Positions 11,793 to 62,322 are shown, numbered from the stretch's first letter. The stretch: DNA of 64,000 nt from an uncultured Actinomycetes bacterium (GCA_963709345.1 CAVPVX010000003.1:32001-96000), one strand, 5' to 3'. Notes: generated from the sequence alone by a model not told the origin. Numbers and translations: made by a program.

Positions 11793-11879
11793 CCGCATCG
11801 GCGTCGCCGCCGCCCCGGCACCTCGCCGACGCGGCCTGCTGGCGTCCGTCTTGACCCCAGTGCTACTCTCTGTGGCAGT

Positions 11880-12020: not shown

Positions 12021-12025
12021 GGGAC

Positions 12026-45169: not shown

Positions 45170-46180
45170 GTGACCGGCACGGCCAATATCGAGGGGAGCA
45201 TCACCGCCATCGCCGCCGAGCTGGGGGGCGTCGTCGGTGTCGCAGCGCGAAATCTCGCCAGCAAAGCCGGTGTCCACATCCACGCCGACGAGCTCTTTCC
45301 CATGGCCAGCTGCTTCAAGGTCCCGGTCATGGTCGAGGTCATGCGCCGGGTCGACGCCGGGGAGGTGCGGCTCGACGACCGCCTCACGCTCACCGAAGGC
45401 GACAAGAGCCCCGGGGGCACGCTGATCCACTGCCACGAGGGGCTTTGCCCCAGTGTGCGCGACCTGCTCTACCTCATGATCACCCTCAGCGACAACACCG
45501 CCACCGACATGCTGTGGCGGCTGGTCGGGCTCAAGACGGTCAACGCGACCATGCGCAGCCTCGGGCTCGAGACGATCGACTGCTCCATGCCGAATCGCGA
45601 GTACTTCCTCATCGAGTCTGGGGCCGGCGACGAGTGGCGGGGGCTGAGCGGCGCCGAGATCCTCGGCCGCTGGGGGGAGATCGAGGCGCGCGGAGAGCGC
45701 GAGGCGGCGCTCCGCCGCCTACTCGACGAGAACGCGCGCCTCGACGGCGCCGGCTTCCTGCATCTGTACGAGCGCCGATGGGGCCGGGACGAATCGCTCG
45801 GCTACGAGGACTCCTTCGTCGTGGACCAGGCGCTCGACAACAAGTGCTCGCCGCGCGACATGGCCGGCCTTCTTGCGATGATCGCGGAGGATCGCTGCGC
45901 CACAGGCCCGTCGTGCCGGCTCATGCTGCAGATCATGAGCCACCAGGAGTGGCGTGAGAAGCTGCCCGCCGGCCTGCCGGACGAGCTGTTCGTGGCCAAC
46001 AAGACGGGCGGCGTCAGCGGCACCAGCAACGACGCCGCCATCGTCTACACGCCCTCGGGCGCGCCGATCGTCATGGTCGTCTACTGGAAGGGCCTGGAAT
46101 ACGAGGCCAAGCTGCGCGCCGACAGGGCCATCGCCGCCATCGCCACCGTCGTGTACGACCACCTCGGAGAGCCGTCGTGA
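45170..46180 (+). CDS. Class A beta-lactamase-like serine hydrolase (no signal peptide)
   Basis: ASCFK (SxxK), MITLSDNTAT (SDN) and NKTG. Confidence 0.88.
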   Translation: MTGTANIEGSITAIAAELGGVVGVAARNLASKAGVHIHADELFPMASCFKVPVMVEVMRRVDAGEVRLDDRLTLTEGDKSPGGTLIHCHEGLCPSVRDLLYLMITLSDNTATDMLWRLVGLKTVNATMRSLGLETIDCSMPNREYFLIESGAGDEWRGLSGAEILGRWGEIEARGEREAALRRLLDENARLDGAGFLHLYERRWGRDESLGYEDSFVVDQALDNKCSPRDMAGLLAMIAEDRCATGPSCRLMLQIMSHQEWREKLPAGLPDELFVANKTGGVSGTSNDAAIVYTPSGAPIVMVVYWKGLEYEAKLRADRAIAAIATVVYDHLGEPS

Positions 46181-46935
46181 ACGTCGGCGGCGCGCGCATC
46201 CTCGTCATCGGCGGCGTCCGCCGGCTCGGCGGGACGGTGGCCCGGGACCTCGCCGATCTGGGCGCCGCCGTCTGCGTGACGACGCGGACACCGGACGCCG
46301 AGGCCGACGCGCAGGTCGAAGCGCTGCGCGCCGCCGGCGCCGCCGCAGCCGCCGTCGTTTTCGGAGACGCGAGCTCGGCGCCCGGCGCCTCCCGCCTGGT
46401 CCACGACGGATCCGGCGCCCTCGGTGGACTGGACGCGCTCGTGTTCGCCGCCAGCGGTCCATTTGCGCCCGCAGCTCCACACACCGTCTCCGAGACCACG
46501 TGGGACGCTTCGTTCGACACCGTCGCCAAGGGCTTCTTCTTCGCCGCGGCGGCGGCGCGCGGGCACCTGCTCGCCGTCAGGTCGCCAGGGGAACGGCCCG
46601 GAGGCGTGATCGTCGCCGTCACCGATCTGCTGGGGCTTCGGCCCTGGCCCGCGTTCGCCGCTCACAGCGCCGCGAAGGCGGCCCAGATCAACCTGGTCGG
46701 AGGGCTGGCGGGCGCGTGGGCGGACGACGGCATCCGCGTCTGCGGCGTGGCGCCGGGGCCCGTCGATCTCGAGGACGACGAACACCGTGACGCGACGCTT
46801 CGCGCGGCGCGTGGCGAGGTCGGGCGGCTCGTGCAGCCGCAGGACGTCGCCGCCGCGGTGCGCTTCTGCCTGGAAGATGAGGGCGTCACCGGTGTCAACA
46901 TCCCTGTGGACAACGGGTCGCTGCTCGGCCGCTGA
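46177..46935 (+). CDS. SDR family oxidoreductase (pteridine reductase/FolM-like)
   Basis: GGVRRLG, AHSAAK, IRVCGVAPGPV and VTG..IPVDNG. Confidence 0.8.
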   Translation: MNVGGARILVIGGVRRLGGTVARDLADLGAAVCVTTRTPDAEADAQVEALRAAGAAAAAVVFGDASSAPGASRLVHDGSGALGGLDALVFAASGPFAPAAPHTVSETTWDASFDTVAKGFFFAAAAARGHLLAVRSPGERPGGVIVAVTDLLGLRPWPAFAAHSAAKAAQINLVGGLAGAWADDGIRVCGVAPGPVDLEDDEHRDATLRAARGEVGRLVQPQDVAAAVRFCLEDEGVTGVNIPVDNGSLLGR

Positions 46936-46977
46936 GATCAAGCGGGGCGGGCCCGCGAGCCCGCCCCAGGACCGACG

Positions 46978-48633
46978 TCAGCTCGAGGCGAGCTTGCCCT
47001 TCGTGGCCCGGTCGATGAGCTCCTTCGCCCTGAGCGCGAGCCAGAACTCCATGCGATCCTGCGAGCGGTTGAGGTCGCGGCCGGTGATCTCCTCCACACG
47101 CTTCATGCGGTACCGCAGCGTGTGACGGTGCACGTAGAGCTTCTCGGCCGCGTCGCCCCAGTGGCCGTTCGCCTCGAGGAAGCAAGCAAGGCTGCGCACG
47201 AGGTCGCTGGAGTTCTGCTCGTCGTACTCCTGAAGCCTGCCGAGGACGCTGTCGTAGAACACCTCGAGCGACAGCGTGTCCTGCAGGCCCAGCAGCAGCC
47301 CGTACGACCCCAGGTCATCGAAGCTGGCGATGACACCGGGCTCGCCCTTGAGCTTGCGGATCTTGATCGCGTAACTGGCCTCGTAGTAGCTCTGACGGAG
47401 GTCGGTGAGCTGACGGTGAGGCCGGCCGATGCCGATCGAGACGGAGATCTCCGGGAGCATCTCGCCGATCACGCCCTGCAGCTCGCCGGCGAGAGCGATC
47501 AGCGCCGGAGCGTCAAGCGCGCCGGGCTGGACGAGTACCACGACGGAGTCGCTGCGCGACGCACTGATGAACAGGGTCTCGCGCTTCGCCATGAACTCGT
47601 CGACCGCCCAGTGCAGGCGCTCTTTGACGTCCTGGACGACGACCTCGGTGCGGTCCGGAACGGCGTCGGGCTCCTCGTCCAGCCCGTCGATGCCCACGAG
47701 GATGATGAGGTGCGGCGACTGCGGCTCGAGCCCGAAGAAGGCTAGCCGCCTCGCTATCTCCTCCTCGTACAGGTCGCTGGCGATGAGCTCGTCGAAGAAA
47801 TCGCCGGCGAGGCGCTTCTCGGTCTCGGCGACCGCCTTCTTCTTCACCAGTTCCAGCGCGGTCACGGTGACGACGTTGTGCAGGATGATGCGGTCGTACT
47901 CGCTGAAGTCGCCGCTGTCCTTGACCGCCGCGAGGAAGGCGCCGATGCGGTGCGACGCGACCACCGGATAGACCTGCACGCCCGATCCGACGCCCTCCAT
48001 GCTGAGAGCGAAGTTCTGGCGGTCGGCGCGCCGGTCGCTGATCTGGCGCCACAGGTCGGCGATGTGCTCGCCGCCCACGTGACGCCGGTAGGCGGCCTCG
48101 CAGAGGACGACGCCGTGGAAGTCGAAGAGCACGGCCGAGCAGCCGACCAGGGCCGAGAGCGTGGAGAGGATGGCCTCGAGCCCCTTCTCCTCGAGGACGA
48201 TCTTGGTGAGCTTCTCGTGCACCGCGAGGCTCCGCTGCAGGAGCGAGTACTGCTCGTTCACGATCTTCGAGGCGACCGCCTCGGTGATGGCGATGAACGG
48301 TATGTGGTACGGCACCTCGAACAGCGGGAAGTCGTACTCCTCGGCCACTCTGACCAGCGCCGGCGGGACCTTGTCGAAGCTGAAGCCGGTGCCGAAACCA
48401 AGACCGGAGATGTTGTGGTCGATCAGTTGCTTGAGCTGCTCGACCTGCTGCTCCTCCTCCCCGACGAAACCGTACCCGGTGGTCAGCAGGAGCTCACCGC
48501 CCTTGAGCCACTTGGTCGCGTCCGGGATCTCGGTGATGTGCACCCAGCGCACGGGGTTGCTGGTCGACGAGTGCCCGGCCAGCAGGCGCAGGTTGAGCTC
48601 GGAGATCTCGAGGATGTCCTGGACGGTGATCAT
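46978..48633 (-). CDS. PucR/CdaR family transcriptional regulator
   Basis: VRWVHITE..WLKGGELLLTTG PucR domain; C-terminal AAEKLYVHRHTLRYRMKRVEEITG HTH. Confidence 0.94.
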   Translation of the reverse strand: MITVQDILEISELNLRLLAGHSSTSNPVRWVHITEIPDATKWLKGGELLLTTGYGFVGEEEQQVEQLKQLIDHNISGLGFGTGFSFDKVPPALVRVAEEYDFPLFEVPYHIPFIAITEAVASKIVNEQYSLLQRSLAVHEKLTKIVLEEKGLEAILSTLSALVGCSAVLFDFHGVVLCEAAYRRHVGGEHIADLWRQISDRRADRQNFALSMEGVGSGVQVYPVVASHRIGAFLAAVKDSGDFSEYDRIILHNVVTVTALELVKKKAVAETEKRLAGDFFDELIASDLYEEEIARRLAFFGLEPQSPHLIILVGIDGLDEEPDAVPDRTEVVVQDVKERLHWAVDEFMAKRETLFISASRSDSVVVLVQPGALDAPALIALAGELQGVIGEMLPEISVSIGIGRPHRQLTDLRQSYYEASYAIKIRKLKGEPGVIASFDDLGSYGLLLGLQDTLSLEVFYDSVLGRLQEYDEQNSSDLVRSLACFLEANGHWGDAAEKLYVHRHTLRYRMKRVEEITGRDLNRSQDRMEFWLALRAKELIDRATKGKLASS

Positions 48634-48737
48634 GCCGGAGATTCTACACGATGTCCTAGTACAGCGCGAGGGTCACGGCCGGGAAACGCCGCCGGCCTTT
48701 GTACGTTCTGGCAGAGAGCAGAGGCGGCCGCGCGCCG

Positions 48738-50378
48738 TCAACGCCGCTGGAGGACGCGGCCCGGCAGGCTGCCGGTGTGCTCCCCGTCGGCGATCACGGG
48801 GTCCCCGTTGACGAACACCCAGTCGATGCCCTCAGGTGACCGGTGCGGGACATTCTCGAAGGGGAAACGATGTGGAGACGGATTGGTCGCGCGATCGCGC
48901 ACGCGGTCGAGGTCGAACACGGCGATGTCGGCCTTGAGCCCCGGGCGCAGCACGCCGCGATCGTACAGCCTGAAGCGCTGCGCGGGGAAGGACGTCATCT
49001 TGCGGATCGCTTCTTCCAGACGCAGGACGGGCTCGTCGCGCACGTAGCGCTCGAGGATCCCCGGGTACTCGCCGTAACTGCACGGCCAGTAGAGCCCGGG
49101 GTCGTCGAGTTCCTCGGGCGGCGCCATGACCAGGCCGTCGGAGCACACCATCGCCACAGGGCTCTGCAGCAGCGCCCGGATGTTGCTCTCTTCGATGTAC
49201 TCGAAGATGCCGACGATCTGATCGTCTTCTTCGACGATGAGGTCGAGATAGGTATCGAAAGCGTCGGCTCCCCGCTCGGCGGCGATGTCGGCGACCGAGC
49301 GCCCTCGATACTCCGGATGGCGGCCGGCGTGGAGGATGACGATACGGTCGAAGCGGCCGTGGCGGACCACACCCGTGTAGCCGGCGCCGGGCAACTGGTC
49401 CTCGAGGACGGCGCGGCGCAGGTTCGGCCGCTCGCGCCGCTCGGCGAGCAGGGCGAGCAGGGCGTCGTGACCGAGGTCGAGGATGGGTTGCGGGAGCGCC
49501 CTCGAGAGTCTTGGCGCGAGCTCCGTGTGGACGTCGTTGTCGGTCGTGACGTCCATGCCCTCGCGCCGCGCGGCCTCGATGAGCGCCAGATTGGCGGATG
49601 CGTCCTCGGGGGCGCCCCACTTGGGCGCGTTGTGCGAGACCTCGACGGCGATCCCGGCGCGGCGGCCGATGTCGATCGCCTCGGCGACCGATGCGAGGAT
49701 CGTCTCGCGTTCGCCGCGCACGTGCGACGCGTAGATGCCGTCGTAGCGGGAGACGACCCGGCACAGACGGACGATCTCCTCGGTGCCCGCGAAGCACCCC
49801 GGCGGGTACACGAGGCCGGTCGACAGACCGTGGGCGCCGGCGCGCATCGCCGCGTCGACGTGCCGCTCCATGCGCTCCAACTCACGCTCCGTGGCAGGGC
49901 GCTCGGCGAGGCCCATGACCGCGAGCCGCACCGCGCCGTGGCCGAGGAGCGGCGCGATGTTGATCGCGCCCCCCGCCCGCCCGAGCGCCGCGAGATACTG
50001 GCGGAAGCTCTTCCAGTCCCAGTCGACGCCGGAGATGTCCCAGTAGTGCCCCCAGTTGTGCAGCGCCGCCTCGCGGTGGGCGGCGCTCAGCGGAGCCGCG
50101 GACATGCCGCAGTTGCCTGTGACGTGCGTGGTGACGCCCTGCCTCACCGCCGTCTCGGCGCGCGGATGCTGCAGGATCGAGATGTCCGAGTGCGTGTGCG
50201 GGTCGACGAACCCGGGCGTCACGTAGCGGCCGTCGGCGTCGATCACCTGCCGGCCACGCAGCGACCCCGCCGCGCCGATCGCCGCGACACGGTCCCCGCG
50301 CACCCCCACGTCGGCGAAGTACCAGGGATTGCCGCAGCCGTCGACGACGCGCCCTCCCGCAATGACCACATCGTGCAT
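48738..50378 (-). CDS. N-acyl-D-amino-acid deacylase (D-aminoacylase) family amidohydrolase
   Basis: PGFVDPHTHSD, GVTT..GNCG, STGL.YPPG, SHVRGE, AIRKMTSFPA and RG.L..G.KADI. Confidence 0.9.
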   Translation of the reverse strand: MHDVVIAGGRVVDGCGNPWYFADVGVRGDRVAAIGAAGSLRGRQVIDADGRYVTPGFVDPHTHSDISILQHPRAETAVRQGVTTHVTGNCGMSAAPLSAAHREAALHNWGHYWDISGVDWDWKSFRQYLAALGRAGGAINIAPLLGHGAVRLAVMGLAERPATERELERMERHVDAAMRAGAHGLSTGLVYPPGCFAGTEEIVRLCRVVSRYDGIYASHVRGERETILASVAEAIDIGRRAGIAVEVSHNAPKWGAPEDASANLALIEAARREGMDVTTDNDVHTELAPRLSRALPQPILDLGHDALLALLAERRERPNLRRAVLEDQLPGAGYTGVVRHGRFDRIVILHAGRHPEYRGRSVADIAAERGADAFDTYLDLIVEEDDQIVGIFEYIEESNIRALLQSPVAMVCSDGLVMAPPEELDDPGLYWPCSYGEYPGILERYVRDEPVLRLEEAIRKMTSFPAQRFRLYDRGVLRPGLKADIAVFDLDRVRDRATNPSPHRFPFENVPHRSPEGIDWVFVNGDPVIADGEHTGSLPGRVLQRR

Positions 50379-50398
50379 GCTCACGGCTCGCCCCAGTC

Positions 50399-51508
50399 CT
50401 ACATCTGGAAGATCTGGTACGAGTTCTCGCACGGCGCGCCCGCGCAGGCGTACAGGCGACGCTCGTCGAGGTCGCAGATCATGCTGCCGACCGTCATGCC
50501 CTGCTCGGCCGGCGGCTCGCTCTCGTCCGGGTGGCCGCAGATCGCCATCTCTGGTGAGGGCTCGTGACAGCGCAGCACGCCGGCGGCGAGCGCGACGGGG
50601 TCGTCGCCGGCGGCGATGCCCTCGGCGAGCATGCGCTCCGCCGTGGCCAGGCGCACGACCGACTCCTCGTGCGCGGCTCCCTCGAAGGGCGTCATGGCCG
50701 GCGCGACGTAGTGATTGGTGTGAGCCATGAAGCCCGCCGGACTGTGGTCCATGAAGGCGTGACTCGTGGCGGAGGTCTCGACGTCCCACAGCCTCCCGCA
50801 CGTGTCGGCGAGGAAGTGATTGGTGCCCCGGGCGCGGGCCGCCAGCAACCCGCGCGCCCGCGCCTCCTCGAGAGTCGGCGCATCCAGGGTCGCCCGGCGC
50901 ACGAAGGCGTTGGGCACGCCGACGCGATTGTCCTTGGAGTGCACCGAGTTGCTCACGCTGGCGACGCCGTGTGAGTTCATCCCCAGCATGAGGAGATAGG
51001 GGGCGCCGGCCAGGCCCATGACACGGGTGCCGTCCGGCCCTGTGAGGTCGAACAGGACGTTGTTGACGGCGTCGATCACGTACCAGTCCATGTTGTGGCC
51101 GACGATGTGACGGCCGCCGCTGACGACCGCCACGGCCGTGCAGTGGTCGCCGCCGCGAAGCGAGCCGGGCGAGAGCGCCCGGCCGTCACCGACGGGCTCG
51201 TCGGAGGTGAACTCCTCGCCGCAGTTCGGCACGAGAACGTGGCCCAGCGGCAGGCCGGCGCCCTCGGCGAGACCCTCGAGTTCGTCCATCTGCCGCGGCA
51301 GCCGGCGGCCGGCGGCCTTGGCGTACGCAAGAGCCTCGCGCTCCGCGTCGGCGAAGGTGAGCCGTCCGCGCGTCATCGCCTCGAAGTGGTCGCGAAAAAA
51401 GGTGACCGAGGCGCGCACCTGCTCCCGTGCCGCTTCACCGACGGCGCGTCCGAGTTCCCGGTGGGAGCCTCGGGCCTGCACGTGGACGAAGGGGATGGGC
51501 GTCGTCAT
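50399..51508 (-). CDS. C45 family Ntn-hydrolase (acyl-CoA:6-APA acyltransferase-like)
   Basis: GSHRELG, ELEGLAEGAG, CTAVAV nucleophile, GHNMDW, GMNSHG and HTNHY. Confidence 0.88.
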   Translation of the reverse strand: MTTPIPFVHVQARGSHRELGRAVGEAAREQVRASVTFFRDHFEAMTRGRLTFADAEREALAYAKAAGRRLPRQMDELEGLAEGAGLPLGHVLVPNCGEEFTSDEPVGDGRALSPGSLRGGDHCTAVAVVSGGRHIVGHNMDWYVIDAVNNVLFDLTGPDGTRVMGLAGAPYLLMLGMNSHGVASVSNSVHSKDNRVGVPNAFVRRATLDAPTLEEARARGLLAARARGTNHFLADTCGRLWDVETSATSHAFMDHSPAGFMAHTNHYVAPAMTPFEGAAHEESVVRLATAERMLAEGIAAGDDPVALAAGVLRCHEPSPEMAICGHPDESEPPAEQGMTVGSMICDLDERRLYACAGAPCENSYQIFQM

Positions 51509-51511
51509 GGC

Positions 51512-52987
51512 CTACAGCCCGAGCATTCGGCGTGGATCGGGATACTCTGCGACGCCCATGTCCGCGGCGCAACAGCCGATCAGCTCGCAGAGCGCGGCGA
51601 GCACGTCGTCGGGCAATCCCACCGGCTCGCGGTCGAGTAGCTCGGCCACTTTGTCGGAGGCGAGGTCGACCAGGCCGATACGCCCCGACGCGACCCAGTC
51701 GTTCAGACCTCCGCGGTAACTCAGCAGCGGGCTCACGAACTCGCTCCGGATGTAGCGCCGCGTGTGCTTCGTGCCGAGGAACCCGCGGCCGGACAGCACG
51801 CCGTCGACCATCGCGTCCACATCCAGCGCATCGACATCCCAAGGCCGCTGGGAGAGCGCGTACAGTGCGTTGTTCAAGACCTCGTCGTCGACGACCAGCA
51901 CCTCCAGACAGCTGGCGACCCCTGCCTGGATCTCGCCGATGCCGGACAGGAGGCGCGGCCTGGCCGACAGCCCGAGCAGAGCGTTGACGATGCGCTCGTA
52001 GCCGAACTGCGCGTCGATGACCTTGCTGTCGCTGCACGGTCCGTAGCAGTCGCAAGCGAGACCGTAGCGGCGCGCCAGCAGAACGGCGGCAACGGAGGCG
52101 ACGCCGGTCTCCGGCGTGCCGCTGACGACGACGCCGCTGCGTGGGTCGACGGCGCTGAGCCGCGGACCGTAGTAGACCGGGGTGCCCGGCGCCGCGGCCT
52201 GCGCCAGCACCACGCCGGCGAGGACCTCGGCGTTCTGCTGGGCGATCGCCGCGGAGAGGGCGCCCGGCGCCGTCGTCGCGGCGGCGGGACACGGCAGGAT
52301 CTCGACGGCCACGCCGCCGCGCCGCACCTGCTCGACGAGCGCGTCGGAGACGTCGCCGCCGAGGATCAGGGGGCTGACGGGGGAGAAGGCCAGGTCGATG
52401 GGATACGTGCCGCCCGAGCCGTCGGCGCCGGTGACGGCCTGCGCCATCTCCTGCAGGTACAGCGCCTGCAGCGGATACGAGATCCCGGGCCCGCCGATCG
52501 CCTTGTCGGTCTCGTACGAGAGGACGAGATACGAATACAGCGGCTCGAGCAGGTCGGGCACGTCCTCCGGTTGCCAGAGGGAGGTCACCTGCTGCTGATG
52601 CTGCAGGTGGTGCATGATCCGGGTGGCCAGCACCTGGTCGCGCATGGTCGCCCGGCGGCCGACGCCGGTGCGCGGGTCCGCCACATCGCGGGCGCCGCCG
52701 AGGTTGTGCACGTAGGTCGCGCCGGGATCGGGGTCCATCGCCAGCGAACGCGCGCCGTCGCGCGCCGCGAGAGTGTAGGCGCGAGGGCAGGCGGCAACGG
52801 CCTCCTCGACGACCTCCCGCGGGATGCTCAGACGGTCCGATCCGGCCGGCGTGCAGCCGGCCGCCGCCAATACCCCGGCGGCGACCGGCGACTCGACGCG
52901 CACCCCGGCTCGCTCCAACAGCGCGAGCGACGCCAGGTGCATGGCCTCGATGGCCTCCTCCGGCCAGATCCCGATGGGATCATCCAT
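51512..52987 (-). CDS. Trimethylamine methyltransferase (MttB/MtgB) superfamily protein, non-pyrrolysine
   Basis: ASL.LLE..GV, SPVSPL, ATTAPGAL..AIAQQNAEVLAG, DSKVIDAQFGYE and FLGTKHT; no in-frame TAG. Confidence 0.9.
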   Translation of the reverse strand: MDDPIGIWPEEAIEAMHLASLALLERAGVRVESPVAAGVLAAAGCTPAGSDRLSIPREVVEEAVAACPRAYTLAARDGARSLAMDPDPGATYVHNLGGARDVADPRTGVGRRATMRDQVLATRIMHHLQHQQQVTSLWQPEDVPDLLEPLYSYLVLSYETDKAIGGPGISYPLQALYLQEMAQAVTGADGSGGTYPIDLAFSPVSPLILGGDVSDALVEQVRRGGVAVEILPCPAAATTAPGALSAAIAQQNAEVLAGVVLAQAAAPGTPVYYGPRLSAVDPRSGVVVSGTPETGVASVAAVLLARRYGLACDCYGPCSDSKVIDAQFGYERIVNALLGLSARPRLLSGIGEIQAGVASCLEVLVVDDEVLNNALYALSQRPWDVDALDVDAMVDGVLSGRGFLGTKHTRRYIRSEFVSPLLSYRGGLNDWVASGRIGLVDLASDKVAELLDREPVGLPDDVLAALCELIGCCAADMGVAEYPDPRRMLGL

Positions 52988-53019
52988 GCGCCATCATCCC
53001 CCCCGCTGCGTGCCGGCCG

Positions 53020-54810
53020 TCATTCGTCTTCGACGGCTTTCGGCCGACGCCTGATCAGGACGAAGGCGATGACGGCGACGACAACGACGGCGAGGACGAG
53101 GATCCAGATCCAGGTCGAACTACCGGCCGCCTCGGTCTCCGCAACCTCGGCGGGTGTCAGGTCGATGTACGTCGACCGCATGTAGTTCCAGAACGGCGCG
53201 CCGTCCGCGCCGGGGACCTGGTGGTAGCCGGTCCACTTGTCGGTGCGGAACGCCTGCAGGTTCACGTTGTACCAGAGGACGATATACGGGTTGTCCCGGT
53301 ACAGGATCTTCTGCATCTCGTCGGTGACGACCTTGCGCATCGTCGGATCGTCCGGCTCCGCCGGATCCACGGCCTCGGCCTGCTCCACGTAGAGCGCGTC
53401 GTACTCGGGGTTCGAGTACTGGCTGTCGCCCCAGTTGAGGATCTGCTTGGTGGTGAAGGTGCTGAGCATGAACCCGGGGTCGATGTCGCCGCCCCAGCTC
53501 CAGATGAACATGTCGTAGTCGGCGTTGTCGTAGACCTCGTCGCCGAACGCGCCCTCGTCCTTCTGCTCCAGCTTGAGCTTGATGCCGACGTCGTCGCACC
53601 AACTGACGATCATCTTGCCGGCCGCCTGGTCCTCCGGATACTCGTTGAGCACCACGAAGCGGAACTCGAGCTTGTCGCCCTTCGCGTTCTCGCGCACGCC
53701 GTCGCCGTCGGTGTCGGTGTAGCCGGCGTCCTCGAGGATCTGCTTGGCCTTCTCGGGATCGTAGCTGTACTGCTCGGCCTCGGGGACCTCCCAGTGCCAG
53801 TCGCCCTGTGCGGGAGAGATCACCGAAGTGCCGGGGACGGCCTGGCCGGCCATCGAGGTCGCGTTCAGCGACTCCTTGTCGATCGCCCAATGCACCGCCT
53901 GGCGGATGGCGACGTCGCGCAGCAGGGGGTTACCCTTGCTCTTCGCGCTGTCCCAGCAGTTGAAGGCGAGCTCGTGGAAGCCGACCGCCGAAGACGCGAC
54001 GGCTGTGGTGCCCGGAAGCTCCGCGAGGATCTTCTCGTACGTCGCCGGGAACTCGACGATCGCGTCGAGGTTGCCGGCCTTGTAGTCCTCGATCATCGAG
54101 TCGGTGTTCTGGCTGATGATGTAGTAGATCTCCGCGATGGTCGGCGCCCCGCCGAGCTCAGCCGGGTAGTCCGGGTTCGCCTCGAGCTTCACCCACTTGC
54201 TCTTCTTGAGCTCGGCGACCTTGAAGGGCCCGGAGCCGACGAACGGCGAGTTCTTGAAGTTGTCGAGGTTCTCGGGGTCGGCCTTCTTCCAGATGTGCTC
54301 GGGGAGGATCGGGATGTAGAGAGCGAGCATGCCCGCATTGGGCTTGCGCGTCTCGATCACGAGCGTCGTCGCATCGGGAGCCGTCACGCTGGTGACGCCG
54401 GTGAGGTACTGGATGTAGGCCCAGTGCTCGGTGTCCAGGATCAGGTTGTAAGTGAAGGCGATGTCGGCGGCGGTGAGCGGCTTGCCGTCGTGCCAGGTCA
54501 TGCCCTCACGGATGGTGAACGTCCAGGTCAGACCGTCGGGCGACGTCTCCCAACTTGTGGCGAGATCGGGCGTCGGCAGGTAGTCCTCGTCATACCAGGT
54601 GAGGAAGTTGTAGCCGAGCCGGAAGGACTCCCAGGAGATGCTGCTCCACGAGCTGAAGGGGCTCATCCCGTCGTAGTCCTGGTTGATGCCGATCCTGTAG
54701 GTGAGCGGTTCGGCGGCCGGTGACGGTGACGCGGCGGCCGGCCCCGCGGCAAGCGCGAACAGGCACAGCGCCGCAGCGCTGATCTTCGCCGTGGTGAACC
54801 AGCGTCTCAT
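53020..54810 (-). CDS. Peptide/nickel ABC transporter substrate-binding protein (family 5) with C-terminal membrane anchor
   Basis: PDLATSWETSPDGLTWTF.IREG.TWHDG.PLTA.D..FT, GSGPF and IRQA...AID; signal peptide; C-terminal TM followed by RRR. Confidence 0.92.
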   Translation of the reverse strand: MRRWFTTAKISAAALCLFALAAGPAAASPSPAAEPLTYRIGINQDYDGMSPFSSWSSISWESFRLGYNFLTWYDEDYLPTPDLATSWETSPDGLTWTFTIREGMTWHDGKPLTAADIAFTYNLILDTEHWAYIQYLTGVTSVTAPDATTLVIETRKPNAGMLALYIPILPEHIWKKADPENLDNFKNSPFVGSGPFKVAELKKSKWVKLEANPDYPAELGGAPTIAEIYYIISQNTDSMIEDYKAGNLDAIVEFPATYEKILAELPGTTAVASSAVGFHELAFNCWDSAKSKGNPLLRDVAIRQAVHWAIDKESLNATSMAGQAVPGTSVISPAQGDWHWEVPEAEQYSYDPEKAKQILEDAGYTDTDGDGVRENAKGDKLEFRFVVLNEYPEDQAAGKMIVSWCDDVGIKLKLEQKDEGAFGDEVYDNADYDMFIWSWGGDIDPGFMLSTFTTKQILNWGDSQYSNPEYDALYVEQAEAVDPAEPDDPTMRKVVTDEMQKILYRDNPYIVLWYNVNLQAFRTDKWTGYHQVPGADGAPFWNYMRSTYIDLTPAEVAETEAAGSSTWIWILVLAVVVVAVIAFVLIRRRPKAVEDE

Positions 54811-54857
54811 GTGGGGCTCCTTGTCATGTGCTCCACGCCCGCTCCCCGCGGGCGTCC

Positions 54858-55943
54858 CTACTTGATCCGGATGCAGGCGGCGTAGTGGTCGCCGCCGATG
54901 TGCACGTCCGGTGGGTCGATCTCCTTGCAGGCGTCGATCGCCTCGGGGCACCGCGGGTGAAAGCGGCAGCCGGAGGGGATGTCCACCGGGTTCGGGGTCT
55001 CGCCCTTAAGGATCACGTGCTCGCGCTTCGCGAGCGGGTCCGGCACCGGGATCACGCTGATCAGGGCCTTCGTGTACGGGTGCCGGGGGTTGGCCACGAC
55101 CTCCTCGGTCTCGCCGATCTCGACGATGCGGCCCAGGTACATGACCGCGATGCGGTCGCTGATCACCCAGGCCAGCGAGAGGTCGTGGGTGATGAAGATG
55201 TAGGTGACGCCGAGCTTCTCCTTCTCCTCGACCATCAGCTTGAGGATGTCGTTACGGATCGAGACGTCGAGGCTGGCGACCGGCTCGTCGGCGACGATCA
55301 TGTCCGGCTCGAGCACCGTGGCGCCGGCGATGCAGACACGCTGCCTCTGGCCGCCGGAGAGCTCGTGCGGGTAGCGATAGAGGTACTCCGTGGCCGGCCG
55401 CAGCCCGGCCTCGCTGATGGCCTTGACGACGCGCTCTTCCTTCTCGCGTTCGCTCGAGCAGACGTTGTTGACTTCGAGCGGCTCGGCGACGATGTCGAAG
55501 ATCGTCTGCTTGGGATTGATCGAGTTGTAGGGGTCCTGGAAGATGATCTGCGCCTTCTTGCGGTACGCGCGCAGCGTGCGGGAGCCGAATCTCTCGACCG
55601 GCAGCCCCTTGTAGAGGATGTGGCCGCCGGTCGCCTCTTCGAGGCGCAGGAGCGCGCGACCGGTGGTCGTCTTGCCGCAGCCCGATTCGCCGACCAGGGC
55701 GAGGATCTCGCCCTGCAGGACCTGGAAGCTGATGTGGTCGACCGCCTTGACGTACTTCTTCTCTGTCGCGACCATGCTCTTGAAGAAGCCCCGCTGGATC
55801 GGGAAGTAGACCTCGAGGTCCTTGACGTCGTACAGGACGCCGTCGGTGGTCGTCGCCGACGCCAGGTCGCCGCTGTCGACGCTGCCCTTGACGTAGGTGT
55901 CCTTGGGGTCGGCGCTGGTCGCCGGGTCGGTGGCCATCGTCAC
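54858..55943 (-). CDS. Oligopeptide ABC transporter ATPase (OppF/DppF-like)
   Basis: [29 protein letters not shown] and GCRFHPRC. Confidence 0.93.
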
Positions 55944-56971
55944 ACCCCCTTCCCGGCGTGGACGCAGCGAACGAAATGACCGCGCTCGACCTCGACGAGG
56001 CCGGGGTGGTCGGTCTCGCAGCTGGCGACCTTGTCGTCGCAGCGCGGGCAGAAGCCGCAGCCCGCCGGCGGATCCACGAGGTTCGGCGGGTCGCCCTTGA
56101 TCGAGCTGACCATCTCCCGCTTCTCGTGGATATTGGGGAACGCCTTGATGAGCTGGCGTGTGTACGGGTGCGTGGCGTGGTTGAAGATGTCGGCGGTGCT
56201 GCCGCTCTCGACCACCTCGCCGGCATACATGACGACGCCCTTGTCGCAGGTCTCGGCCATCACCGAGAGATCGTGGCTGATGAGGATGAACGAGAGGTCG
56301 AGCTCTTTGCGCAGACGCGCGATGAGCTCGAGGATCTGCGCCTGCACCATGACGTCGAGCGCGGTCGTCGGCTCGTCGCCGATGATCAGCTTGGGGTTGC
56401 AGGCCAGCGCCATGGCGATCATGGCGCGCTGGCGCATCCCGCCCGAGAGCTGGTGTGGGAAGTCCATGACGCGCTTCTGGCTGATGCCGACGAGGTCGTA
56501 CAGTTCCTTGACGCGGACCATCGCCTTGCCCTCGGAGAGGCCCTCGTGCAGCTGGATGGGCTCGGCGATCTGCTTGCCGGTCTCCGTGACCGGGTTGAGC
56601 GCGTTCATCGCCCCCTGGAAGATGATGCTGATCTCCTTCCAGCGGATCTTGCTCATGCCGTACTCGGTGCGCTTGGCGAGGTTCTTGCCGTCGAACAGGA
56701 CGTCGCCGGAGACGATGCGCCCGTTCTCGGGCAGCAGCTTGAGGATCGAGAGGGCCGCGGTCGTCTTGCCGCAGCCGGACTCGCCGGCGAGGCCGAGGCT
56801 CTCACCCGGAGCGAGCGTGAAGCTCACGTCCTGCACCGCCTTGACGTCGCCCACGCCGAGCCTGAAGTAGGTCGTGAGACCGCGCACGTCGAGCAAGCCC
56901 TCGTGCTCGATGCGCTCGATGGTCGTCTTCTCGGGGGCGGCGCTGGCCTTCTTGGTGGCCGTCCTGCTCAT
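55940..56971 (-). CDS. Oligopeptide ABC transporter ATPase (OppD/DppD-like)
   Basis: [36 protein letters not shown] and HPYT. Confidence 0.93.
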   Translation of the reverse strand: MSRTATKKASAAPEKTTIERIEHEGLLDVRGLTTYFRLGVGDVKAVQDVSFTLAPGESLGLAGESGCGKTTAALSILKLLPENGRIVSGDVLFDGKNLAKRTEYGMSKIRWKEISIIFQGAMNALNPVTETGKQIAEPIQLHEGLSEGKAMVRVKELYDLVGISQKRVMDFPHQLSGGMRQRAMIAMALACNPKLIIGDEPTTALDVMVQAQILELIARLRKELDLSFILISHDLSVMAETCDKGVVMYAGEVVESGSTADIFNHATHPYTRQLIKAFPNIHEKREMVSSIKGDPPNLVDPPAGCGFCPRCDDKVASCETDHPGLVEVERGHFVRCVHAGKGV

Positions 56972-58560
56972 CACTCGCCCCTTTTCTCGTCGTCTTCGAA
57001 CCTGCCGCCGACCCAGCCGCCGCTCTCCGGACTGCCGATAGAGCCGCCCGCAGGCTTGTTGAAGTCGGGCATGGCGTCGTCTGTCTGCTGGCCCGGCGTG
57101 AAGACGCCGGCGCCGCCGCCCAAACCGGCACCGCCGGCGACTGCTACGACCGGCTCGCCGCCTGAGGTGAAACGACTCTCGGAGACGCTGTCCTCGCGCT
57201 TGCGCAGCTTGGGATCGAGCACCTCGTCGTACGCCGTCCCGATGAAGGTGAAGGCGAGCACGACGAAGATGATCGCGATGCCGGGCGGAAGCAGGTACCA
57301 CCAGGCCGGCAGGCCGGCGGCGCCGTTGACCCAGGCGTAGTGGAGCATCGTGCCCCAGCTGAAGTTGAGAGGATCGCCGAGACCGAGGAACGAGAGCGTG
57401 GTCTCGGAGAGGATGGCGATGGCCACCACCAGAACGAGGTTGGCGAAGATCAGCGGCATCACATTGGGCAGGACGTGCTTGCCCATGATGTGACGGTTGC
57501 TCGAGCCGATCGCCTTGGCGCGCTCGATGAACTGCAACTCGCGCACGCGCAGCACGTCGGAGCGGACCACGCGGGCAGTACCGGGCCAGCTGGTGATGCC
57601 GATGATGAGGATGATCATCCAGTAGTTCTGGCCCCAAGCGGCGGCCAGCACCATGGCCAGCGGCAACCACGGGATGACGAGGAAGGCGTCGGTGAGCCGC
57701 ATCCAGCCTTCGCCCTGCCAGCCCCCATAGAAGCCTGCGGCGATGCCGATGCCGGCGCCGAGGACGGTGGACATGAAGGCCGCCAGGAGACCGACCATAA
57801 GCGAGATGCGCGCGCTCCATATGAACTGGGCGAGGACGCTCTGCCCCACCTGGTCGGTGCCGAACCAGTTGTAGTAGTCCCAGGTGGGTGGGTGGTAGGC
57901 GAGCAACAGCTCGCCTGTGTCGGGGTCGCTGATCTGCGCGTTGGGGTCGAGCAGCGCGTGGTCGGCGAGGAAAGGCGCCAGCAACGCGATCGCGAGGAAG
58001 ACGATGAGGATCCCCAAACCGACCATCCCCTGCCAGTTGCGCCGGTAGAGGGTCCAGACCTGATGAGTGTTCCAGGTGGTCAGCGCCGCACGCTCGGGAT
58101 TGCCCGCCGCCCAGTACCAGGCGCAGGCGCCGCCGAGAAGGACCGCCACTGTCTGCACGAGCCAGTTGTACGAGAACCCGTTGGCGCCCGCCGACCAGCC
58201 GTCGACGCCGCGGCCCGCGAGGAATGCCCAGAGGAAGAGCACGACCGACTCCACCACGAGCAGCAGGTTGAAGATCTTGGCCTTGGTCCGGCGCACGAGC
58301 CCGGCGACGCCGGCGGCGAGGCAGATGATGCCGAGCAGCACCATGACCCACGCGGGATACGCCCCGACCGTGGGCGAGAAGAACGCGCCCACGACCTCCG
58401 AGAAGCCGGACGTGATGGGAACGTCCTTCGGGTAGGTGAGCAGCTCGAGGACGATCCACGCGACGGCCGTCCAGAAAAGGATCCAGTTCCTGAAGCGACG
58501 GGGCACGAGGGGTGCTGCTGTGGTGCCCCGCTCGATGGCGTTGGTACCGGGGGCGTTCAT
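56971..58560 (-). CDS. Oligopeptide ABC transporter permease (OppC-like) with N-terminal membrane extension
   Basis: FGTDQVG, ARISL, FIERAKAIG, HVLPN, LSFLGLG and WG.ML. Confidence 0.9.
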   Translation of the reverse strand: MNAPGTNAIERGTTAAPLVPRRFRNWILFWTAVAWIVLELLTYPKDVPITSGFSEVVGAFFSPTVGAYPAWVMVLLGIICLAAGVAGLVRRTKAKIFNLLLVVESVVLFLWAFLAGRGVDGWSAGANGFSYNWLVQTVAVLLGGACAWYWAAGNPERAALTTWNTHQVWTLYRRNWQGMVGLGILIVFLAIALLAPFLADHALLDPNAQISDPDTGELLLAYHPPTWDYYNWFGTDQVGQSVLAQFIWSARISLMVGLLAAFMSTVLGAGIGIAAGFYGGWQGEGWMRLTDAFLVIPWLPLAMVLAAAWGQNYWMIILIIGITSWPGTARVVRSDVLRVRELQFIERAKAIGSSNRHIMGKHVLPNVMPLIFANLVLVVAIAILSETTLSFLGLGDPLNFSWGTMLHYAWVNGAAGLPAWWYLLPPGIAIIFVVLAFTFIGTAYDEVLDPKLRKREDSVSESRFTSGGEPVVAVAGGAGLGGGAGVFTPGQQTDDAMPDFNKPAGGSIGSPESGGWVGGRFEDDEKRGE

Positions 58561-59543
58561 GCGTGCACCCGTGGGTCGAGGTAGTAGTACGTGATGTCGG
58601 CGATGAGATTGGCGACGATCACCGCGATGCTCGCGATCAGGAACACGGCCTGCATGACTGGGTAGTCGCGCTTCTGCATCGAGTCGAAGGAGAGCAGCCC
58701 AAGCCCGGGCCAGTTGAACACACTCTCCGCGAGGATGGCCCCGGACATCACGAAGCCGAGGTTCATCATCACGATGGTGACCGTGGGCAGCATCGCGTTG
58801 GGCACCACGTGGCGCCACAGCACCTTGTTCTCGCTCAGCCCTTTGGCCCGCGCCGTGAGAGTGAAGTCCTCCTTCATCACGCCGGTGATGGAGCTGCGCA
58901 TGATGAGGTGGTACTCACCGACATACGCGATCGCGAAGGTGAACGCCGGGAGGAAGAGGTGCTTGAGCAGCGACTGGATGTACGCGAACCCGCTCAGTTC
59001 GACGCCGGGCTCCTCCATGCGCCCCGTCGGGAACCAGCGCAGCTTGGTGGCGAAGAGCATGATCATGAGAAGGCCGAACCAGAAGGTGGGCATGGCGTAG
59101 AGCACCATCCCTAAGTTCGTGGTCACGACGTCGTAGGTGCCGTTTCTTCGCCATCCGGCGAAGACGCCCGTGATCATGCCCACCACGGTAGCGAAGATGG
59201 TCCCGACCCCGACCAGAAGCACCGTGGGCCAGATGCGCTCAGCCACCACCTCGGTGACGGGGCGCTTCTCGGAGAAGGACATGCCGAACTCGCCCTTCGC
59301 CGTGTCGCGCCAGTAGTAGATGAACTGCTGCCACATGGGCTTGTCGAGGTTGAACGTCTTGCGCTGCTTCTCGATCACCGAGGGGTCCGTCTTCCCCTTG
59401 GGGAGGAGGAGCCGGGCCGGGTCGCCCGGGAGGATCCGGAAGAGCGCGAAGTTGAACGACGCCACGAGGATGATCGTCAGAACCGCGTTCGCGATCTTTC
59501 GCAGGAAGTACCGTCGTTTGTCCACTGCACTGCGGACCGCCAC
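58557..59543 (-). CDS. Oligopeptide ABC transporter permease (OppB-like)
   Basis: LPGDPA, PTFW, TARAKGL, ESVFNWPGLG, DYP and DPRV; possible upstream CTG start at 59567. Confidence 0.93.
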   Translation of the reverse strand: MAVRSAVDKRRYFLRKIANAVLTIILVASFNFALFRILPGDPARLLLPKGKTDPSVIEKQRKTFNLDKPMWQQFIYYWRDTAKGEFGMSFSEKRPVTEVVAERIWPTVLLVGVGTIFATVVGMITGVFAGWRRNGTYDVVTTNLGMVLYAMPTFWFGLLMIMLFATKLRWFPTGRMEEPGVELSGFAYIQSLLKHLFLPAFTFAIAYVGEYHLIMRSSITGVMKEDFTLTARAKGLSENKVLWRHVVPNAMLPTVTIVMMNLGFVMSGAILAESVFNWPGLGLLSFDSMQKRDYPVMQAVFLIASIAVIVANLIADITYYYLDPRVHA

Positions 59544-59794
59544 GCGCCCGGCCCCGAGCGGCGACAGGTCCTTGCCTCCTTCTCACTTCCGCGTTTGCCG
59601 AACCCCGGACACGTGCTGTTCCGCCTCACACGATGACGTGGAGGGCGTCATCGAGGTTAGACGCAGCCGGAGTGCCGATCCGTCGGCGGTACGGCCGCAC
59701 CGTCGGCGGACGTGCCGCCGGACGAGTACTACGCCGGCGTCGAGCCTCCCTCGGCGCACCGGCCCCCCTCCACTACACCCCGGCCGGCGCCGCA

Positions 59795-59823
59795 ATCGTA
59801 ATCGCCATCAGCGAGGGCGGCAA
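59795..59823 (-). promoter_or_regulatory. Sigma70-type promoter of the opp-mttB operon (TTGCCG-17-TACGAT)
   Basis: Hexamers with exact 17-nt spacer on the minus strand. Confidence 0.65.
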
Positions 59824-59873
59824 GGGAGACGAAGCTCTCGGAGACCCGAGCGCGGATAGGACCGGCGCCGGAG

Positions 59874-60990
59874 CTATGCCCCGCCGGGCAGCCGCGCGTC
59901 GCGGCCGTACCGGCGCAGGGTCTCGACCAAGCGGTCGATCGGCAGAGCGTAGGCCACGTTACCGTCGCGACCTACGGTCGTGTGCGCGGCGGTAAGCGCG
60001 TTGAACACACTCTCGGCGGTGGCGTCGACGGCGGCCTCGAAGAGCTCGTGCATCTGGTCGTTGGCGACCGTCGTGATCTCCAGCGGAGCGTCGGCGACAC
60101 GGGGCACGCGATGAGCCGTCGTGAAGGCGACCATGATCTCACCGCTGCCGTCGGAGGCGTAGGAGCCGGTCACCGCGAGTCCCAGCGCGCACCGCTTCGC
60201 CATGCGCTCGCACTGGCGCGCGCTCAGCGGCGCATCCGTCGCCAGCACGACGATGCAGGATCCTTCGCGATGGTCGACCGGCATCAGGTCGGCGATCTCG
60301 ACGCCGACGGGGACGCCCGCCACCGACAAACGATGCCGCGTCCCGAAGTTCGTGAGTGCGAGGACACCGACCGTGTACGACGCGCCGTGCGCGACGGCGG
60401 CGCGCGACGAGGTGCCGATGCCCGCCTTGAAGTCGAAGCACGACATGCCGGTACCGGCCCCGACGCAGCCTTCGGCGACGGGGCCGGCGGCGGCTCGCGT
60501 CCAGAGCGGCCCGCACATGCTCCTCACCGACGTGCATGCCGCGCAGATCGTTGAGCAGGCCGTCGTCGCATTCCCCGACCACCGGCATGACGGCGTCCTC
60601 GATGCCGGCCCGCGGCTCGCGGTCCATCATCCAGCGGACCGCGCCGTCGTAGACCGCGCCGGCGCTCTGCGAGTTCGTGAGCAGCACCGGCGTCTCGATG
60701 ACGCCCCACTCGCGAATGGCGCTGATGCCGATGACCTCGCCGACGCCGTTGGCGGCGAAGGCTCCTGCGACGACGCGCTCCTGCCAGAGGTCACCGGAGT
60801 GCGGGAAGACGGCGGTGACGCCTGTGCGGGCGGGCCCGCTGCCGTGCGGCAGATCGGGCGCGCCCCACGAGACGGTACACTGTCCGACGCGCACACCGGG
60901 CACGTCGGTGATGGCGTTCAGCGGGCCGGCCGGCAAAATGCCGATCGTGACGCCGAGGTCACGGAGACGACAACGCGCCGGCTCGCCCAT
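59874..60990 (-). CDS. P1/S58 family peptidase (DmpA L-aminopeptidase/D-esterase-like); apparent +1 frameshift at ~60495
   Basis: GPLNAITDVPGVRVG, RTGVT, PVVGECDDG.LND; then EGCVGAGTGM, FKAGIGTSSR, NFG, GSC and DGSGE in the second frame. Confidence 0.9.
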
Positions 60991-60994
60991 GCGC

Positions 60995-61804
60995 CTACTC
61001 GAGGATTCCGTCGCGGTGCGCCTTCAGGTAGGCGCCGCAGAAGTTGTCCTCGCCGCGCAGCGCTTCGGTCGACTTGATCGTGGCCATCATCTGCTTGTTG
61101 CGCACGTCGACGATGAGCCCGTCGAGGCCGAGGCCGGCGCACATGGCGACGAAGGTGCGGTTGAGCAGGGCGCGGTTCGGCAGGCCGAAGCTGACGTTGC
61201 TGAGACCGCCGGTGGTACGCACGGACAGACGCTCCTTGACCAGCTTGAGCGTATCCATGGTGACCATGGGCGCGCACGGGTCGGCGGACACGGCCATGAC
61301 CAGTGGGTCGACCCAGAGATCCTCGGTCGGCAGGCCGGCGCCGGTGAAGAGGTCGTAGATCTGCTGCGCGACCTCGAAACGGTCCTCTGCCGTCGGCGGG
61401 ATGCCGTCGTCGTTCATGCAGAGGCCGACGACGGGGCACTTGTACTTCTCGACCTGCGGGATGACGGCGTCGATGCGCGCCTGCTCGCTGCTGATCGAGT
61501 TGATGAACGGCACCTTGCCGCCGTCCTGTGATGCACGCCTCGACGCCCACGGTCGAGCGCGTCGGGCTGGCGGAGTCGACCATGAGCTGCGTGTCGGTGA
61601 CGCCGCATGACCATCATCGATGAGCCAGACGATGTCGTCGTCCTCGTCGCCGCCGGCGACGCCGCCGTTGACGTCGAGGATGCCTGGCGCCGGCCTCGAC
61701 CTGCTCCGGTAGCGAGAGCCTTGATGAACTCGGCATCGCGCGTTCTGGATCGCCTCTCCGACCTGCTTGCGCGTCCCGTTGATCGATTCACCCATCAACA
61801 ACAT
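60995..61804 (-). CDS. Methyltetrahydrofolate:corrinoid methyltransferase (AcsE/MtgA-like, pterin-binding); several apparent indels ~61530-61740
   Basis: MGESING, LDVNGG, INSIS, DPLV, GLSNVSFGLPNR..LN..F and terminal D.FC..YLKA.R. Confidence 0.88.
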   Translation of the reverse strand: MLLMGESINGTRKQVGEAIQNARCRVHQGSRYRSRSRPAPGILDVNGGVAGGDEDDDIVWLIDDGHAASPTRSSWSTPPARRARPWASRRASQDGGKVPFINSISSEQARIDAVIPQVEKYKCPVVGLCMNDDGIPPTAEDRFEVAQQIYDLFTGAGLPTEDLWVDPLVMAVSADPCAPMVTMDTLKLVKERLSVRTTGGLSNVSFGLPNRALLNRTFVAMCAGLGLDGLIVDVRNKQMMATIKSTEALRGEDNFCGAYLKAHRDGILE

Positions 61805-62238: not shown

Positions 62239-62277
62239 GAGAGAAGCGGCGGGCGGGCCTTGAGGCCCGCCCGCCGC
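62239..62277 (-). terminator. Intrinsic terminator of groEL
   Basis: GCGGCGGGCGGGCCT-ca-AGGCCCGCCCGCCGC followed by TTCTCTC. Confidence 0.8.
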
Positions 62278-62322
62278 CGACGCGACAGAGTCTCGCTCCT
62301 TCGTAGCTCTAGCTCTGGTGGA

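Follow-up and report, generated by a model that had tools for sequence, protein, structure and literature searches.

A stretch of 64,000 nucleotides from an uncultured anaerobic actinobacterium (GCA_963709345.1, CAVPVX010000003.1:32001-96000; called the window below) carries on its minus strand, from 46978 to 61804, eleven co-oriented genes in which a methyltransferase of the MttB superfamily stands among the genes of an Opp-type ATP-binding cassette (ABC) importer and of several amide hydrolases. The genome has 3.1 Mb and is 98% complete, the window has a G+C content of 70%, and the close relatives are recorded as metagenome-assembled genomes (MAGs) of Thermoleophilia. The locus raises the question of whether these genes act on one compound and, if so, which of them belong to the pathway. 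A first-pass annotation had read all eleven as one pathway that imports, hydrolyses and demethylates a methylated peptide or amide. We find that the locus is a composite, in which a pterin methyltransferase gene and a PucR regulator gene form a backbone that frames a variable island of nine genes. With a probability of roughly 0.55, this island feeds on peptide-like N-methylated nitrogen compounds through a composite route of import, cleavage, MttB and tetrahydrofolate (THF).

In the proposed route, the Opp-type importer would take up a small, peptide-like, N-methylated nitrogen compound, and five orphan paralogous binding proteins that other loci of the genome encode may use it as well. The compound would then be cleaved by amide hydrolases, as a rule by an enzyme of the C45 family and, in the genus of the window and one other, also by a D-aminoacylase-type enzyme and an S58 peptidase. 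The divergent MttB protein would strip methyl groups from the compound or a fragment of it and transfer them to a corrinoid protein encoded elsewhere, from which the neighbouring pterin enzyme would hand the methyl group to THF. What we infer is a common substrate, the passage of the methyl groups, the use of one importer by several binding proteins and the sequence of cleavage and demethylation. The observations behind them are the content and spacing of the genes, an altered pocket residue, the adjacency of MttB and C45 throughout a family and the renewed association of MttB with Opp and peptidases in another phylum, together with the MttB-type fold that the structure model shows.

The MttB-type protein and its substrate pocket

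The gene at 51512-52987 (minus strand, as are all eleven) encodes a divergent non-pyrrolysine member of the MttB superfamily. Its product matches PF06253 over profile positions 32-492 of 500 with an E value of 2.1e-61 (207.9 bits, cut-off 25). With TIGR02369, the model for the pyrrolysine-type MttB proper, it reaches 244.9 bits against a cut-off of 525 and stays outside that family. No in-frame TAG stop interrupts the gene, so that the protein was rightly called non-pyrrolysine in the first-pass annotation; Cys318 aligns with the TAG position in nine paralogous rows of its own genome. The structure model (pLDDT, the predicted local distance difference test, 93.1) is a TIM barrel superposable on solved MtgB and MttB structures, with a TM score of 0.89 and a root-mean-square deviation (rmsd) of 2.1-2.6 Å to 9yce, 7xcl and 2qne.

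In MtgB, Y97 and F356 hold the quaternary nitrogen and R312 and H348 the carboxylate of the substrate. R312 is conserved in all characterised MttB members, whose substrates are all acidic, and all of these members use small free quaternary amines (according to the accessible part of PMC13080624). When the window protein was aligned with MtgB (9yce), Y97 was replaced by L96, R312 by D313, H348 by S348 and F356 by G356. L96 lies in a gappy stretch, and the alignment around D313 is ungapped and anchored by a conserved DSK-x-DAQ-x-GYE stretch. The arginine and the two aromatic residues of an acidic quaternary-amine methyltransferase are thus missing. D313 belongs to a C-D-C-Y-G motif that is near-invariant across the clade of 47-100% identity, where one printed sequence has a serine for the first cysteine. 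In the wider branch, 14 of 16 sequences have D or N at the Arg312 site, and among 80 motif rows of distant relatives N was found in 79 and D in one. The Asp313 pocket would agree with a substrate that is not a free acidic betaine and that has no free acid at this site.

A metal site at C312-D313-C314 was considered and rejected. The cysteine pair, invariant in the clade of 47-100% identity apart from the serine just mentioned, is yet replaced in the next relatives, and residues 312-315 lie on a barrel strand, where the cysteines should point to the side opposite D313 and Y315.

The identity to every other paralogue of the own genome is at most 36%. A search of 1.84 billion cluster representatives returned 4017 matches at E values up to 0.001, in a superfamily with thousands of members yet to be characterised, and showed a small clade at 45-52% identity followed by a drop to 38% or less.

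A variable island between two backbone genes

The pterin methyltransferase gene (60995-61804) and pucR (46978-48633) mark the two ends of the block. In five relatives (L096, L098-L101) groEL, the pterin methyltransferase gene and pucR follow each other without the genes in between, and an alanine dehydrogenase (AlaDH) gene lies within about 1 kb downstream in L099-L101. Since the pterin and pucR genes stand side by side there, the other nine genes form an island. A match to the pterin methyltransferase was present in 80 of 81 genomes of one Thermoleophilia family, mostly at 60-73% identity and including genomes without MttB. The MttB orthologue was found in 64 of 79 genomes of the family and in none of 321 genomes from eleven other families of the class; these MttB counts are lower bounds, with three candidates scored per genome.

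We then compared 39 loci spanning the pterin gene to pucR, a non-random sample in which some loci were fetched for lacking MttB. The full island was present in 19 of them and the full island minus the binding protein in 8, and in 5 the slot was empty with the pterin gene directly beside pucR. Two loci carried oppBCDF, MttB and C45 only, plus one more in degraded form. Single loci were without binding protein and amidohydrolase, had the binding protein and MttB only (L033), had oppBCDF and C45 only (L103) or had a full island with an MttB remnant (L111). Further partial loci without MttB were L109, a clean loss, L110, with a remnant, and L114 and L115. The usual core of the island is therefore OppBCDF, MttB and C45. 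The S58 gene, the gene for the D-aminoacylase-like hydrolase and that for the substrate-binding protein (SBP) are accessory: the first two are present in the genus of the window and one other and absent from the sampled genera at greater distance, and the SBP gene is often lacking. MttB at 62% identity or more adjoins C45 on one contig in 50 of the 55 family genomes found in both searches, across at least seven genera. The remaining cases are four on fragmented contigs that do not resolve the arrangement and one true exception.

The slot between the pterin gene and pucR also holds extra cargo in some relatives. Between the amidohydrolase gene and pucR, L017 and L023 carry a second SBP-MttB pair (41% and 52% identity), and L021, L026, L038, L039 and L093 have an additional SBP gene with ABC ATPase genes in the slot.

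Recurrence in a second phylum

Metagenome contigs were scanned with an alignment of four distant MttB relatives (A3), which yielded 80 loci with MttB genes at 34-40% identity to that of the window. Thirty-five of these loci, some of them Chloroflexota by protein names, measure 8 kb or more, and among them 28 had Opp genes, 28 had at least one amide hydrolase and 23 had both; a pterin methyltransferase was present in 13 and a corrinoid protein in 8. The hydrolases were of the families S9 (21 loci), M20 (21), C45 (3), D-aminoacylase-like (3) and HDAC-like (2), and the D-aminoacylase-like homologues had 57-58% identity.

At least three gene orders were observed. L138 has the order SBP-oppBCDF-S9-MttB-M20-pterin methyltransferase. 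L173 has C45-MttB-SBP-oppBCDF, divergent to amidohydrolase-MttB-MttB-corrinoid protein, and it is one of the three loci with a D-aminoacylase-like gene. In L184 and L187, C45 is immediately ahead of MttB. L173 is tied to Chloroflexota by protein names; proteins at 78-81% identity to its MttB are named Chloroflexota or Anaerolineae by NCBI. Relatives from the branch of the window MttB stand beside corrinoid and pterin methyltransferase genes in L120, L138 and L173. The strongest evidence is that one hydrolase family replaces another at the same place, which points to a connection between import, amide cleavage and this MttB branch. The same partnership of MttB, importer and hydrolase in an unrelated phylum hints at an undescribed methylated food source.

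In the sister clade at 47-56% identity, SBP_bac_5 genes adjoin methyltransferase genes in L078, L079, L083, L085, L087 and L092. One of these (L079:5786-15540) has an SBP_bac_5 gene, an ornithine cyclodeaminase/mu-crystallin gene and then an MttB gene of 53% identity, flanked by a divergent M24 peptidase gene on one side and DUF885 on the other, with a flavin amine oxidase gene nearby. It appears to be another module for small nitrogen compounds.

Weighing the proposed pathway

Several findings weigh against the proposed pathway. The pterin enzyme and PucR stand without the island in five relatives, and therefore their presence is no evidence for the pathway. MttB is gone in at least seven sampled genomes with importer and C45 intact; in L103, L109, L110, L111, L114 and L115 it is absent or reduced to a remnant of 9-14%, and the SBP, amidohydrolase and S58 genes are also intact in some of these loci. 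The hydrolase-importer part is therefore useful without MttB. Conversely, L033 retains only SBP and MttB. Within-family conservation proves little on its own, because these kin genomes all share the flanking groEL, AlaDH and aldehyde:ferredoxin oxidoreductase (AOR) genes too. In the 35 longer metagenome loci neither S58 nor PucR was found, and C45 and the D-aminoacylase-like gene accompany MttB in just 3 each. None of the 24 matches to the B12-binding profile PF02310 in the genome lies on the contig of the window, which leaves the locus without a corrinoid protein gene, and the S58 gene of the window is frameshifted in the assembly.

Such a pattern could also arise if two unrelated modules shared the slot, one for scavenging peptides, with Opp, C45, the D-aminoacylase-type hydrolase and S58 acting on D-amino-acid or unusual peptides, and the other a methylamine unit of SBP and MttB. 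The SBP-MttB unit would have been drawn to this site because the sole putative methyl-corrinoid:THF methyltransferase and a regulator lie there. The six loci with Opp and C45 and without MttB agree with this, as do L033 and L092, which have SBP and MttB without Opp and C45, and L017 and L023, where the second SBP-MttB pair of 52% identity is inserted in the same slot. Likewise, distant C45 homologues (28-33% identity) from other Actinomycetota families stand beside Opp sets and without any MttB in 7 of 20 loci, sampled from a phylum tally of 33 of 401 genomes that includes the unpublished G487 and G516, on which no other result depends. The link between C45 and Opp in these loci also speaks for the proposed pathway. 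However, mttB is placed between the SBP gene and C45, at 32 and 3 nt, and not at the edge of the island. Nor does chance explain why the MttB branch recurs with Opp and peptidases of other families in a second phylum and in several gene orders, with both partners in 23 of the 35 loci. We therefore regard two modules as rather doubtful.

Another reading keeps all the parts of the proposed pathway and reverses their order. MttB would first demethylate the intact peptide at an amino terminus or side chain blocked by one to three methyl groups, and the hydrolases would then degrade it. That the substrates of every characterised family member are small free quaternary amines (accessible part of PMC13080624) speaks against a peptide as the direct substrate, and we hold this order to be unlikely as a separate explanation. 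Demethylating and then cutting nevertheless matches the data as well as cutting and then demethylating. The pocket has Asp or Asn in place of the arginine that holds the carboxylate, and the hydrolases of both phyla include enzymes that need or recognise an amino terminus (S58 aminopeptidase, S9 and M20). Hydrolases that accept unmethylated peptides too would stay useful after the loss of MttB, as observed. We consider it very improbable that the MttB homologue has some other role, with a different chemistry or as a decaying paralogue, and that its place in the island is without metabolic meaning. In at least seven genera the protein has an intact frame and 62-96% identity, 89 of its residues are invariant over 60 distinct sequences, its TIM barrel is modelled with confidence and its branch relatives lie beside corrinoid and pterin methyltransferase genes. 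Such a role would account for the differences at all four glycine-betaine-binding positions, for the repeated losses and for the missing corrinoid partner in cis.

Taken together, our results partly support the first-pass annotation, whose central idea was right and whose scope was too wide. The tie that it drew between MttB, a peptide importer and amide hydrolases recurs in the distant loci, although mostly with other hydrolase families (S9 and M20). The single eleven-gene pathway does not hold, with two backbone genes, three accessory genes and an MttB gene that was lost repeatedly. The conservation of the neighbourhood, on which that reading had been made to depend, is found for Opp and for the MttB-C45 pair and fails in distant genera for S58 and the D-aminoacylase-like gene. 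A literature search, with most subscription journals outside its scope, returned no description of MttB in a neighbourhood of Opp or peptidase genes.

As to the substrate, we tentatively suggest that the Asp/Asn branch of MttB, which occurs in Thermoleophilia and Chloroflexota from soils and sediments without oxygen, might demethylate N-methylated peptides or amide-linked methylammonium compounds and not free acidic betaines, a possibility that we hold with some doubt. It would act either on the imported peptide, unblocking a methylated amino terminus, or on a fragment released by the hydrolases. If true, corrinoid-dependent methyltransferases would gain their first class of peptide-linked substrates, and anaerobic C1 metabolism would appear to draw on a pool of methyl groups that has gone unrecognised. 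The range of substrates known for corrinoid-dependent demethylation would become broader through an MttB branch that is linked with peptide importers and peptidases in two phyla. Wetland MAGs of actinobacteria are reported to include active anaerobic methylotrophs that express pyrrolysine-encoding mttB (accessible part of PMC10805028). A new class of methylated substrates eaten by wetland actinobacteria would bear on the sharing of methyl compounds between bacteria and methanogens.

Importer, hydrolases and regulator

The importer has the parts of an Opp/Dpp-type system. Two permeases, OppB (58557-59543) and OppC (56971-58560), are followed by two ATPases with an oligo_HPY tail, OppD (55940-56971) and OppF (54858-55937), and by a cluster-C (SBP_bac_5) binding protein (53020-54810). 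None of the Opp genes reached an NCBIfam equivalog cut-off. OppC has 529 residues with an N-terminal extension of about 160; the Opp4C profile begins at residue 166, and alignments with relatives run through the extension (about 97% of the query). The best solved relative of the binding protein is AppA (1xoc), at an E value of only 1e-32.

The S58 peptidase (DmpA/BapA-type aminopeptidase; 59874-60990) had been annotated as a DmpA-type peptidase. The family assignment stands, and the gene is broken in the assembly by a +1 frameshift. Pfam profile positions 1-137 fall in one frame and 133-306 in the other, so that no intact frame covers the whole profile. Compared with all the relatives aligned (14 alignments printed), the window has an additional base near 60494-60498 that shifts the frame, and in the four relatives read the gene is intact in a single open frame. 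The intact protein of the relative L016 matches 2drh (E 6e-96), DmpA (1b65, E 2e-70) and also BapA (3n2w). A comparison of the frameshift with public data gave a best word share of 0.18, with contigs only, and no indel at the site among the rows listed.

The C45 proenzyme (50399-51508), an N-terminal nucleophile (Ntn) hydrolase or acyltransferase, passes NF040521 with 173.6 bits (cut-off 85). Its Cys123, part of an H-C-T-A motif, does not vary among 40 sequences, and we take it to be the nucleophile that becomes N-terminal. A C45 paralogue of the genome (C1:324429) has OsmC, methyltransferase and thioredoxin-like genes as neighbours and is uninformative. The Amidohydro_3 hydrolase (48738-50384) has D-aminoacylases as its nearest solved relatives (1m7j, E 3e-79, aligned in two stretches with an insert). 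It passes no NCBIfam model (best 163.6 bits, cut-off 340). H63, H65, C92, H221 and H251, presumably the metal ligands, are invariant in 34 sequences.

For the PucR-family regulator, the best NCBIfam match was PmfR (E 4e-32) with 111 bits against a cut-off of 800, and a match to AdeR was likewise far below its cut-off. A TAGAAT hexamer lies 7 nt ahead of the pucR ATG.

Genome setting

The genome contains 64 matches to the MttB profile, which correspond to about 45 genes or gene pieces, and nine of the matches have one in-frame TAG. Several of the tandem arrays include pieces that look split. The genome appears to decode pyrrolysine, because a tRNA-Pyl(CUA) (C11:14991-15063), a pylB gene (C11:11843-12853; 427 bits, cut-off 348) and the nine TAG-bearing MttB matches occur together. 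A tRNA-Sec is also present (C1:120215-120312). At C6:14730-18014, an S9-type peptidase homologue with 35% identity to that of L138 is placed immediately upstream of another MttB paralogue, a pairing as in the metagenome loci.

At least seven of the B12-binding matches are beside other MttB genes, and in this respect the genome is equipped for the proposed pathway. The pterin methyltransferase of the locus, a putative MtgA/AcsE-like methyl-corrinoid:THF methyltransferase, matches PF00809 over profile positions 95-244 only (35.9 bits, cut-off 25.5) and PRK07535 (NF005719) with an E value of 1e-63 (214.8 bits, below the cut-off of 259). Only two Pterin_bind genes exist in the genome, folP, which also lies in the window, and the gene of the locus; no match to acetyl-CoA synthase (CdhC) or MtrH was found in the genome. 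If the MttB paralogues hand their methyl groups to THF, the enzyme of the locus would be the single one available, so that, as the only pterin enzyme besides FolP, it would not belong to the neighbouring MttB alone.

The genome encodes six binding proteins of the SBP subfamily of the window. Five are orphans at 36-41% identity with no permease nearby. One orphan (C1:110491) overlaps an MttB gene of 31% identity, and another (C7:220958) adjoins B12-binding and URO-D genes. The three other orphans examined have neither a permease nor a methyltransferase gene alongside, and two of them adjoin HAD hydrolase genes. All permease sets except the OppBCDF of the window have a more distant binding protein to themselves, and this OppBCDF may, as a hub, serve all six. 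Such a role would help explain the retention of Opp upon loss of MttB. Orphan SBP_bac_5 genes of the subfamily repeatedly adjoin a HAD-family hydrolase gene (L117:5744-8641, L118:5026-7870 and L092:8286-12778).

Gene layout and transcription units

The eleven genes were placed by Pfam and NCBIfam matches on the minus strand, with gene starts given as chosen start codons. Both the co-orientation and the tight spacing from oppB to the D-aminoacylase-like gene agree with the first-pass annotation. The genes in this stretch overlap by 1-4 nt or have gaps of 3, 14, 32 and 47 nt, and SBP, mttB, C45 and the amidohydrolase gene are separated by 3-32 nt. Larger gaps occur between the S58 gene and oppB (330 nt) and ahead of pucR (104 nt). 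The block is bounded by two GC-rich hairpins, one outside each end. A terminator-like 15-bp GC hairpin after groEL (62245-62278, minus strand) has a folding energy of -39.1 kcal/mol (z -5.3; 0 of 200 shuffles as good) and no long T run, and hence was not listed by a consensus terminator scan. An 11-bp GC hairpin just after pucR (46943-46968, minus strand) has -28 kcal/mol (z -2.0; 9 of 200 shuffles as good).

This spacing suggests up to three transcription units, namely the pterin and S58 genes, oppB to the amidohydrolase gene, and pucR. The 330-nt intergenic region (59544-59873), which likely is an internal promoter region, contains short conserved blocks and a GAAGGAGG ribosome-binding site in an alignment of 36 sequences. 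In relatives the gap between S58 and oppB measures 194-429 nt. No Rfam family matched the region; a search of the whole window with Rfam gave no riboswitch in the locus and elsewhere only two tRNAs and a Moco riboswitch. A consensus scan, uninformative at a G+C content of 70%, predicted no promoters and 3 terminator-like sites (4.1 expected). A 9-mer comparison of the intergenic regions for a common operator motif gave just GC-rich chance words.

The riboswitch, an RF01055 Mo/W cofactor element at 11872-12033 on the plus strand (47 bits, cut-off 36), overlaps the start of an open reading frame (ORF) at 11855-12904. The AOR gene (AFOR_N and AFOR_C; 41781-43520, minus strand) is near AlaDH, and in relatives, too, both genes flank the island. 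Directly after pucR lies a putative ORF of 286 residues (46081-46977, minus strand) with no Pfam match and an atypical G+C distribution over the codon positions (0.82/0.59/0.82).

Comparison with known systems

Parts of the locus resemble several known systems. The dpp operon of Bacillus subtilis and DmpA of Ochrobactrum anthropi serve the uptake and hydrolysis of D-amino-acid or beta-amino-acid peptides. They are alike in having a peptide ABC importer beside an aminopeptidase for unusual peptides, and they differ in having no methyltransferase. The loci of other Actinomycetota in which C45 and Opp occur by themselves fit the same likeness. PmfR of Arthrobacter nicotinovorans is an activator of an N-demethylation and folate-C1 operon, purU-mabO-folD, and like the window it places a PucR-family regulator near genes that pass N-methyl groups to folate. 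Demethylation in that operon is oxidative and not corrinoid-dependent, and the regulator match is far below the PmfR cut-off.

In Eubacterium limosum, the quaternary-amine systems share a corrinoid protein and a methyltransferase. To our knowledge, their operons are without Opp-type transporters and without amide hydrolases. The likeness to MtpB, MtcB, MtyB and MthB of this organism is that many MttB paralogues would feed a common methyl-corrinoid:THF methyltransferase, with about 45 paralogues to a single pterin enzyme in the genome of the window. The E. limosum enzymes differ in their free acidic quaternary-amine substrates and the conserved arginine (accessible part of PMC13080624). MtgBCD of Ruegeria pomeroyi comprises an MttB-family glycine betaine methyltransferase with shared cobalamin-binding and methyltransferase components. 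This system comes from an aerobic marine alphaproteobacterium, acts on glycine betaine, is tied to methionine synthesis and, in the accessible part of its description, has no island of importer and hydrolase genes (PMC12478193).

The MtgB-MtgC-MtgA system of Desulfitobacterium hafniense (2qne, 9yce) offers a further comparison. Unlike that system, the window has four changed glycine-betaine residues and no corrinoid gene at the locus, and its MttB is set in an island of Opp and amide hydrolase genes. Common to both are the TIM barrel of a non-pyrrolysine MttB protein and probably also a pterin-binding methyl-corrinoid:THF methyltransferase, and the window protein superposes on MtgB (9yce) with a TM score of 0.89 and an rmsd of 2.1 Å (E 3e-40) at about 26-27% identity.

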